Origin: a phage
Sequence record: OR896157.1
Direction: 5' to 3' (one strand)
Length of the DNA: 64,000 bases
Each line of letters starts with the position of its first letter. The stretch's first letter is position 1. Both the position numbers and the translations under genes were made by a program. Shown one piece after another: positions 46,804 to 52,151 of the stretch. The notes beneath the pieces were generated by a model. That model did not search any database and was not told the origin of the DNA. It was given only the letters and a program-made list of their open reading frames with translations.

Positions 46804-46879
46804 TGGTGCCGGTTAACGGATTCGAACCGCTGACCCTCTCATTACAAATGAGCTGCTCTACCAACTGAGCTAAACCGGC
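46804..46879 (-). tRNA. tRNA-Thr (anticodon UGU)
   Basis: manual fold: acceptor GCCGGUU/AACCGGC, D GCUC..GAGC, anticodon loop UUUGUAA, T-loop GGUUCGAAUCC, CCA encoded. Confidence 0.8.
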
Positions 46880-46971: not shown

Positions 46972-47056
46972 TGGAGCTAGGAGTGAGATTCGAACTCACG
47001 AAGGGATACCCGGCGGATTTGCAATCCGCTGCCTTTGGCCACTCAGCAACCCTAGC
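46972..47056 (-). tRNA. tRNA with class-II architecture and anticodon GCA (Cys-type)
   Basis: acceptor GCUAGGG/UCCUAGC, anticodon stem-loop GCGGA-UUGCAAA-UCCGC, 13-nt variable arm CGGGUAUCCCUUC; assignment tentative. Confidence 0.5.
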
Positions 47057-49971: not shown

Positions 49972-49978
49972 AATTTGT

Positions 49979-50070
49979 ACGGAACGCCTGGATTCGAACC
50001 AGGTTAAATTGCGATTGACGTCACAATTTATCTTATGAAGGCCATGCCTCTACCATATCCGAACGTTCCG
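49979..50070 (-). tRNA. atypical tRNA-like gene / possible pseudo-tRNA with CAU-type anticodon loop (UUCAUAA) and a 9-bp hairpin insertion
   Basis: perfect 7-bp acceptor CGGAACG/CGUUCCG and T-arm CCUGG-UUCGAAU-CCAGG, but weak D and anticodon stems and a 26-nt perfect hairpin before the T-arm. Confidence 0.35.
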
Positions 50071-50121
50071 TCAAAAACGCTACTCGGCTTACGGCTTAGG
50101 CAATTCCTCGAACCGATAATT

Positions 50122-51454: not shown

Positions 51455-51699
51455 ATAAATTTACTTTCGTGAGTATGGGATTACCCTCAAGCCTTCCGGA
51501 AAGCTGAATAGGCGTTATTGGCTCTCATATACCCGTGCACAGATATAATCTTCATTAACGCAATAACTTCATCAATATACTCCGAAAGTAAACTTTCGGC
51601 GCCGTATTTAATTTTGACTGTGTAGTTATCGTTGAGGGAACTCACAGACAGGGATTAAAGTGCCGACGACTTATCAGAACGTCTTCTGACTTCTACATT

Positions 51700-51785
51700 T
51701 GGCGGGCCGTGCAGGTATCGAACCTGCCTAGTCATTTCTGACACGGATTAACAGTCCGTCGCTTACCCTCTCAGCCAACGACCCA
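51700..51785 (-). tRNA. tRNA with anticodon GUU (Asn-type) and a 15-nt variable arm
   Basis: acceptor GGGUCGU/ACGGCCC, anticodon stem-loop ACGGA-CUGUUAA-UCCGU, extra hairpin GUCA-GAAA-UGAC, T-arm GCAGG-UUCGAUA-CCUGC. Confidence 0.55.
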
Positions 51786-51865: not shown

Positions 51866-51943
51866 TGGTAGGACGTGAGGGAGTTGAACCCATCGACATT
51901 CCGATTAAAAGTCGGATGCTCTAACCAACTGAGCTAACGTCCT
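51866..51943 (-). tRNA. tRNA-Lys (anticodon UUU)
   Basis: acceptor AGGACGU/ACGUCCU, D GCUC..GAGC, anticodon stem-loop UCCGA-CUUUUAA-UCGGA; T-stem only 3 clean pairs. Confidence 0.75.
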
Positions 51944-52063: not shown

Positions 52064-52151
52064 TGGTGGGGAGTGATGGAGTCGAACCACCCGAGTCGCA
52101 ATGACAACAGATTTACAGTCTGCACCGCTACCTCTACGGAATTAACTCCCC
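52064..52151 (-). tRNA. tRNA-Tyr (anticodon GUA), class II
   Basis: acceptor GGGGAGU/ACUCCCC, anticodon stem-loop GCAGA-CUGUAAA-UCUGU, long variable arm; 5 nt between acceptor and D-stem. Confidence 0.75.

Follow-up and report, generated by a model that had tools for sequence, protein, structure and literature searches.

A tRNA-Asn gene with a long, covarying variable arm in a T4-like phage and its relatives

In Bacteria, the long variable arm of class II tRNAs is by textbook rule confined to tRNA-Leu, tRNA-Ser, tRNA-Tyr and tRNA-Sec. A gene in the phage sequence record OR896157.1 raises the question of how a tRNA with the anticodon of asparagine has come to carry such an arm, whether it acts as a tRNA-Asn and what purpose the arm may serve. 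The analysed stretch of this record, 64,000 nt in length, is referred to below as the window. A sequence-only reading of the window had proposed a tRNA of 86 nt with an Asn-type GUU anticodon, ending at position 51785. ARAGORN calls a tRNA-Asn (GTT) at this locus, but on the minus strand, which had been left unstated, and at positions 51700-51784, i.e. with a length of 85 nt including the encoded CCA, so that the proposed end was one base too far. The Rfam tRNA model (RF00005) matches positions 51703-51784 with 49.2 bits (E = 1.8e-8), which exceeds its curated gathering score of 29, and the gene has the cloverleaf and the conserved bases expected of that family. A single cloverleaf is both the lowest-energy and the centroid structure (-32.7 kcal/mol, z = -2.5 compared to shuffled sequences), in which the acceptor, D, anticodon and T arms form as cleanly as had been claimed.

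The 5' part of the RNA reads GGGUCGU-UG-GCUGAGAGGGUAAGC-G-ACGGA-CUGUUAA-UCCGU-GUCAGAAAUGACUAG and is followed by GCAGG-UUCGAUA-CCUGC-ACGGCCC-G-CCA. The stems have the standard 7/5 arrangement, with a 7-bp acceptor stem, a 3-bp D stem and a T stem of 5-6 bp, and all features described here lie on the minus strand. The 5' acceptor strand GGGUCGU (51778-51784) forms a perfect 7-bp stem with the 3' strand ACGGCCC (51704-51710), starting with the pairs G1-C72, G2-C71, G3-C70 and U4.G69. The D arm GCUGAGAGGGUAAGC (51761-51775) consists of the 3-bp stem GCU/AGC with an adjoining G.A mismatch, and its loop contains A16-G17 where the host-type tRNA-Asn (E. coli asnT) has U16-C17. The anticodon arm ACGGA-CUGUUAA-UCCGU (51743-51759) shares 16 of its 17 bases with asnT and presents the anticodon GUU (51750-51752; placed by ARAGORN at position 33), which reads AAC and AAU. 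The T arm GCAGG-UUCGAUA-CCUGC (51711-51727) is followed by the acceptor strand, the discriminator base G73 (51703) and a genomically encoded CCA end (51700-51702), which is also encoded in the neighboring tRNAs. The canonical elements U8, A14, GG (G18-G19), U33, A37 and TTCGA are all present. The unusual part is the variable region GUCAGAAAUGACUAG, in which the hairpin GUCA-GAAA-UGAC (51731-51742), a 4-bp stem capped by a GNRA tetraloop, is followed by an unpaired 3' tail UAG (51728-51730). Since the anticodon stem and the T stem are separated by 15 nt, a fold with a variable loop of 4-5 nt is impossible, and the alternative structure that could have overturned the sequence-only reading is thereby excluded.

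The gene is not peculiar to this record. In total, 621 phage records match the 85-nt gene, 149 of them with at least 99% identity, among which are many Klebsiella phages and Pet-CM3-4. The surrounding 1-kb region shares 92-98% identity with the T4-like Karamvirus phages CC31, PG7 and Pet-CM3-4 and with Enterobacter and Klebsiella phages. The gene itself is 100% identical to that of Pet-CM3-4 and 97.6% identical to that of CC31, with both differences to the latter preserving a pair (A-U to G.U and U.G to U-A). It is conserved as tightly as the neighboring tRNAs, while the adjoining spacer shares just 82% identity with CC31. Full-length matches of approximately 79-80% identity are found in T5-like Demerecviridae of Salmonella, Escherichia and Proteus, and partial matches in phAPEC8-like and Aeromonas phages. 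Among these homologs, the variable stem changes its sequence and keeps its pairs: GUCA/UGAC in the window copy is replaced by AUCC/GGAU in Salmonella phage 1-23 and by GUUC/GAAC in Proteus phage Stubb, all three with a GNRA loop, and a further compensatory variant is GAGC/GCUC. In an alignment of 18 distinct homologous sequences, 99.3% of the cells contain standard pairs, compared to 70% for shuffled sequences and 34-45% when the pairing partners are slid. All five helices are supported by covariation, including seven out of seven acceptor pairs, and the middle A of the UAG tail is invariant. In the variable arm, all four pairs show compensatory changes and 100% of the cells are paired, for which reason the hairpin reported from the single sequence represents more than a chance fold.

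Asparagine identity in E. coli is determined by the three anticodon bases together with G73, and these elements can be transplanted into another tRNA body (PMC9976931). Both parts of this bacterial identity set, G34-U35-U36 and G73, are present in the window copy, which further resembles asnT in its anticodon arm, its 7-bp acceptor stem and its 5-bp T stem. It differs from asnT in the 15-nt hairpin region in place of the 5-nt loop AUGUC, in the 3-bp D stem, in the D loop and in the acceptor stem (GGG.../...CCC compared to UCC.../...GGA), and thus lacks the class I architecture typical of bacterial tRNA-Asn, in which the variable loop measures 4-5 nt. Conversely, it shares with the bacterial class II tRNAs for Leu, Ser and Tyr a long-arm stem-loop, a 3-bp D stem and a purine-purine mismatch at 13.22; the variable stem-loop exceeds the class II minimum of 10 nt, but the anticodon is not one of the Leu, Ser, Tyr or Sec anticodons. 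The molecule is therefore, as had been suggested, of class II-like shape with the anticodon of a class I tRNA. The gene lies in a cluster of 19 minus-strand tRNA genes called by ARAGORN at 46.8-52.1 kb of the window, as part of which it would be transcribed; a scan for promoters and terminators in its vicinity detected none on the minus strand. No second tRNA-Asn is found among the tRNA genes of the window, which otherwise cover most amino acids, and Asn codons make up 5.2% of its long ORFs in a stretch of 39% G+C. Because the Asn identity elements are present, the anticodon arm is nearly that of asnT and the cluster holds no other Asn tRNA, the gene can be expected to encode a working tRNA-Asn that would be read at AAC and AAU codons. 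Overall, we judge it likely that this T4-like (Karamvirus) phage encodes a functional elongator tRNA-Asn that is charged by the host AsnRS, that carries its arm as a selected module and that is of tRNA-Asn descent.

The cluster also contains odd tRNA-like elements, namely a 95-nt element at 49977-50071 and a Tyr-like gene labeled 'Pseudo' in a relative, and broken hybrids of the long-arm tRNA-Asn occur in Citrobacter phage Ursula and in phage SelmaRatti. With such neighbors and relatives, the gene might itself have no part in translation and be a pseudogene, a tRNA-like RNA or a processing signal of the cluster. This is the least probable of the readings considered and is very nearly dismissed by the perfect acceptor stem, the encoded CCA and the full set of canonical bases, by the covariation of all five helices and a conservation that matches that of the neighboring tRNAs, and by the position of the gene as the sole Asn decoder in an otherwise broad tRNA set.

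The distribution of the arm bears on all further questions. That non-canonical tRNA architecture would be a feature of this phage is correct insofar as its cluster holds more than one such tRNA: in addition to the tRNA-Asn and an odd Tyr-like gene, there is the second case that had been pointed out, an 85-nt tRNA-Cys (GCA) at 46972-47056. The claim is nevertheless too narrow, as a near-identical tRNA-Asn gene occurs in approximately 150 phages, a gene of approximately 80% identity in T5-like phages, and further members of the family, with unrelated acceptor stems, in mobile tRNA arrays and numerous contigs of uncultivated viruses. A first scan of IMG/VR, in which the Asn anticodon arm had to be followed by a long gap, returned at least 120 stretches. 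Together with other loci, these yielded at least 90 distinct genes for a long-arm tRNA-Asn, whose acceptor stems differ greatly and all of which carry GUU by selection, since this was a criterion of the scan. Among the matches listed, the variable region measures 12-19 nt (median 15), and the arm usually has a stem of 3-4 bp, flanked 5' by 0-1 and 3' by 3-4 unpaired nt. GNRA loops are present in 57 of 87 genes (66%) among these matches; of the 81 cleanly parsed ones, likewise among the matches listed, 79 have a discriminator G, 53 have U-A and 27 G-C as pair 1-72, and 47 encode CCA. The arms of tRNA-Ser on the same contigs have a median of 18 nt, 4-7 bp and one unpaired 3' nt, and the layout nearest to that of the long-arm Asn genes is found in tRNA-Tyr.

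How common the long arm is among viral tRNA-Asn genes was addressed by a second IMG/VR scan, which accepted a short or a long gap after the Asn anticodon arm. Out of the 120 stretches returned, 15 (12.5%) have a long variable region, and the arm is thus found on about one eighth of the viral tRNA-Asn genes that share this anticodon arm. Among the matches listed, 89 of the 94 first-scan loci in which ARAGORN calls a long tRNA-Asn contain three or more tRNA genes (median 10), and short and long Asn genes occur together in 15 loci, mostly viral contigs. A scan of 185,579 bacterial and archaeal species, each represented by one genome, found the long-gap pattern at 60 loci, approximately 20 of which are real long-arm Asn genes. 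These are mostly located in dense tRNA arrays, for example with 23-36 tRNAs within 8 kb in Micromonospora and Verrucosispora. The long-arm tRNA-Asn is an inherited and widespread phage form and not a quirk of this genome.

Class IIb synthetases approach the tRNA from the variable-loop side, and because of this an extra arm could hinder AsnRS. Judging from the identity elements, charging of the window tRNA by the host AsnRS is nonetheless most likely, with asparagine being attached through recognition of G34-U35-U36 and G73. The main alternative for the charging identity is serylation. SerRS ignores the anticodon and relies on the long arm, G73 and the first acceptor pairs (PMC9976931), and it has to be considered because the window copy has G73, G1-C72 and G2-C71, all in agreement with tRNA-Ser identity (PMC9976931). 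The tRNA would then have a wrong or dual identity and would lead to serine at part of the Asn codons, a situation comparable to that of nematode class II tRNAs with Gly or Ile anticodons. This is very improbable, since the arm is not of the Ser type: in the window copy it has 15 nt, 4 bp and three unpaired 3' nt, and the family differs from the same-contig tRNA-Ser in arm length, stem and tail. Moreover, two thirds of the family, among the matches listed, start with U1-A72 instead of G1-C72, the anticodon arm is that of the host tRNA-Asn in all but one base, and the gene is the only Asn tRNA of a phage with ordinary Asn codon usage. An identity as tRNA-Tyr, which is defined by A73 and G34-U35-A36 (PMC9976931), is incompatible with G73 and GUU.

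Several known tRNAs offer a comparison. A conversion of tRNA-Tyr to tRNA-Ser was reportedly achieved by Himeno in 1990. The nematode nev-tRNAs, reportedly described by Hamashima and co-workers in 2012, are class II tRNAs with Gly or Ile anticodons that are said to be of the Leu type and to be charged with leucine because LeuRS ignores the anticodon. The window tRNA resembles these in that a class II shape carries the anticodon of a class I family, but it has every Asn identity element, is matched to a synthetase that does read the anticodon, and comes from bacteria and phages instead of eukaryotes. Allo-tRNAs have 8/4 or 9/3 acceptor and T stems and Ser- or Ala-type identity (Mukai et al., PMC5389517). 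They share with the long-arm tRNA-Asn the occurrence in phages and tRNA polycistrons, the long variable arm and a mismatch between anticodon and body (PMC5389517), but the 7/5 arrangement of the window tRNA sets it apart. If the tRNA is indeed charged with asparagine, a class IIb synthetase would tolerate a class II shape, which would be of use for understanding tRNA identity and for the engineering of orthogonal tRNAs.

The class II features also raise the possibility that the gene descends from a class II tRNA whose anticodon has shifted, i.e. a tRNA-Tyr (GUA to GUU, with A73 to G) or a tRNA-Ser (GCU to GUU), and which was then captured by AsnRS. The short stem with a 3-nt 3' tail is closest to tRNA-Tyr, whose arm likewise has 0-1 nt on the 5' side, 3-4 bp and 3 nt on the 3' side; the 3-bp D stem with its G.A mismatch is as in class II tRNAs; the best whole-sequence matches to the window copy outside tRNA-Asn are two tRNA-Ser (GCU), one of them with an identical anticodon stem; and the motif GUCA...GACU is also found in the arm of the phage's Tyr-like gene. 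For the comparison of bodies, the anticodon arms and variable arms were removed and 95 long-arm Asn genes were compared to 1,621 other tRNAs. Among the matches listed, the nearest neighbor is a class I tRNA-Asn in 37 of the 95 cases, compared to 6.3 expected, while tRNA-Ser accounts for 10, tRNA-Leu for 5 and tRNA-Tyr for a single one. In this test the bodies are not Tyr-like, and an origin of the family from tRNA-Tyr through a one-base anticodon shift was rejected on this ground. In addition, most members of the family resemble asnT in their class I Asn-like body and U1-A72 pair, GNRA loops are common in their arms and rare in those of phage tRNA-Tyr, and two members (L038 and L059) combine an E. 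coli-type Asn D arm, GUUCA..GGUAGAAC, with an added hairpin. The window copy itself is ambiguous, with its closest bodies being those of tRNA-Met, tRNA-Val and tRNA-Asn. When 28 Gb of E. coli genomes were searched by BLAST with the 85-nt gene, no match was obtained even at E = 10, the database being too large for so short a query; the E. coli genes asnT, tyrT and serU used for comparison are those of strain MG1655. A class II origin is improbable. The family looks like a tRNA-Asn to which an arm was added, perhaps on more than one occasion, and the form found in phages and tRNA arrays would then descend from an ordinary tRNA-Asn and not from tRNA-Tyr, tRNA-Ser or tRNA-Leu.

If the arm was gained, it need not have a function of its own. 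The variable loop of a phage tRNA-Asn may have acquired a hairpin that AsnRS, EF-Tu and the ribosome tolerate, with its pairing being kept only because an unpaired insert would disturb the tRNA core, and with the form spreading through the exchange of tRNA clusters. Such a neutral, merely tolerated insertion is a serious rival to a selected arm, and although we consider it the less probable of the two, it retains a substantial chance of being correct. Long arms are also found, at low frequency, on other class I isotypes in viral contigs: in loci that were chosen for a class I tRNA-Asn, they are rare (approximately 3%) and affect Cys, Thr (UGU), Ile (UAU), His, Trp and Met, next to long-arm Asn genes with a different anticodon stem. 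Phage tRNA-Leu, on the other hand, often lacks its long arm. Together, these long-arm class I isotypes and armless tRNA-Leu suggest that phage tRNA architecture is loosely constrained, and no partner specific to the arm was found. What a functionless arm explains less well is that compensatory changes maintain it across very divergent acceptor stems, that its geometry and loop composition are narrow among the matches listed, that it is present on approximately 12.5% of viral Asn genes with this anticodon arm compared to some 20 cases in 185,579 species genomes, and that 15 contigs among the matches listed have both a short and a long Asn gene. The 4-bp stem, the GAAA loop and the 3-nt tail would form a selected structural module.

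The leading candidate for the selecting force is defense by tRNA cleavage. Host tRNA-Asn is a target of the PARIS nuclease AriB, whose cut in the anticodon stem falls between positions 40 and 41 (U36-AAUC|C41) and whose second subunit reads U16-U17 of the D loop in the published AlphaFold 3 model; the tRNA-Lys, tRNA-Thr and tRNA-Asn of phage T5 jointly overcome PARIS (PMC12409363). The window tRNA-Asn keeps the sequence U36-AAUC-C41, has A16-G17 in place of U16-C17, and the cut site lies 3 nt before the start of its extra arm. These features fit a shielding role, and one may tentatively propose, as the preferred reading of the arm, that it renders the phage tRNA-Asn unlike that of the host, so that tRNA-directed defense nucleases spare the phage copy, although we hold this, taken on its own, to be unlikely. 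The more specific version, in which the arm acts as a steric shield at the cut site in combination with the changed D loop and allows tRNA-Asn, and perhaps the Thr (UGU) and Cys variants, to escape nucleases such as AriB, seems unlikely. The anticodon arm would in that case be left unchanged for AsnRS and the modification enzymes, while the added arm blocks the nucleases. An anti-defense arm would explain why about one eighth of the viral tRNA-Asn genes are long-armed and why the form is nearly absent from cellular genomes. The gene resembles the PARIS-escaping tRNAs of T5 in that it decodes for a nuclease-targeted host tRNA and lies in a lytic-phage cluster, which in the window includes Lys (UUU) and Thr (UGU) along with Asn (GUU) (PMC12409363). 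Unlike the known escape variants, which have point changes in the anticodon stem or D loop, it keeps the host anticodon stem, adds an arm and alters the D loop. Two facts count against nuclease escape: long-arm Asn genes are carried by phages of many hosts that are not known to have PARIS, and the tRNA-Asn with which T5 overcomes PARIS is of class I with a changed anticodon stem. As host tRNA-Asn is a known PARIS target, the protection idea is directly testable. If it holds, the arm would represent a new escape route, in which structure is added instead of bases being changed, and it would help to explain why phages carry tRNAs.

The locus itself is already known, since the gene is annotated in public records, as tRNA-Asn in CC31 and Pet-CM3-4 and as 'tRNA-Asx' in PG7. 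No published description of a long-arm (class II-like) tRNA-Asn or of its viral bias was found in the literature covered, i.e. a review of non-canonical tRNAs, a review of tRNA identity, computational studies of phage tRNAs, and the papers on T5/SP15 tRNA-Asn with PARIS and retrons. A conserved and covarying long arm on tRNA-Asn is a systematic break of the textbook rule, occurring in hundreds of T4-like and T5-like phage sequences and on about one eighth of the viral Asn genes that share this anticodon arm. The finding has consequences for annotation as well, where relatives of the gene are labeled tRNA-Asn or 'tRNA-Asx' and broken hybrids pass as intact tRNAs.

Two such hybrids were encountered. 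In Citrobacter phage Ursula (PQ589834; L003, 1481-1559), a gene annotated as 'tRNA-Lys (TTT)' is a recombinant of a Lys 5' half and, from the anticodon loop onward, the 3' part of a long-arm tRNA-Asn, leaving the acceptor stem unpaired; it apparently arose through the deletion of Ile, Lys, Glu and Asn. In SelmaRatti (Bas34, MZ501103; L300, 10598-10681), the annotated 77-nt tRNA-Asn joins the 5' part of a long-arm Asn to a foreign 3' acceptor strand with three acceptor-stem mismatches and is not called by ARAGORN. Bas34 needed the tRNA-Asn of phage T5 for PARIS escape (PMC12409363), which this broken hybrid may explain; as a test of the extra arm, the Bas34 result was dropped because its 'tRNA-Asn' is the hybrid. 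T5-like phages have two alternative Asn genes at one place, between Cys and Asp. Phage T5 (L186, 7953-8030) has a class I gene of 78 nt with a mismatched, altered anticodon stem, adjoining the tRNA-like 'rna3', and Bas32 IrisVonRoten (L187, 4001-4083), SP15 and Epseptimaviruses have an 83-nt long-arm Asn gene with a host-like stem. The tRNA-Leu genes of class I length (72-78 nt, without the long arm) are frequent in phage clusters, for example in Salmonella phage 1-23 and Bas32. In Saprospiraceae metagenome-assembled genomes (L145, 5498-5794; L128, L170 and L161), the Asn anticodon-arm pattern is found two to three times at a spacing of 128 nt beside a normal 75-nt tRNA-Asn; ARAGORN calls none of these copies as tRNAs, and they may be tandem partial tRNA-Asn repeats.

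Within the window, the tRNA-Cys (GCA) at 46972-47056 (minus strand, 85 nt, U73) has the long variable arm C-GGG-UAU-CCC-UUC and matches just 35 phage records, almost exclusively Karamvirus-like ones. A derivation from tRNA-Tyr by an anticodon shift was considered for this gene as well; it has 62 of 85 bases in common with E. coli tyrT, including the D arm, but its nearest body in the sample is that of a class I phage tRNA-Cys. Compared to the E. coli AriB cut-site sequence U36-AAUC|A41, the Thr (UGU) gene at 46804-46879 (minus strand) has UAAUGA and the Lys (UUU) gene at 51866-51943 (minus strand) has UAAUCG. The 95-nt element at 49977-50071 (minus strand) is called 'tRNA-Met (CAT)' by ARAGORN, has no Rfam match and ends in AC instead of CCA; its counterpart in Pet-CM3-4 is unannotated and called as Phe (GAA). 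The window element has the appearance of a stable tRNA-like RNA, with a long stem resembling that of an acceptor and a T arm, and not of a decoding tRNA. The Tyr-like gene at 52064-52151 (minus strand), with GUA and A73, has five instead of two bases between the acceptor and D stems and is missed by ARAGORN, while Rfam gives 39 bits. It is 100% conserved in Pet-CM3-4, where it is annotated as 'tRNA-Pseudo-GTA', and in CC31, where it is a tRNA-Tyr, and its variable stem covaries with that of the Ursula copy (GUC/GAC compared to GCC/GGC). Finally, the 245-nt gap between tRNA-Asn and tRNA-Asp contains a 52-codon ORF at 51487-51645 (minus strand), in a spacer with 97.6% identity to Pet-CM3-4 and 82% to CC31, and a hypothetical gene of 159 nt is annotated at the same position in phage Ursula.
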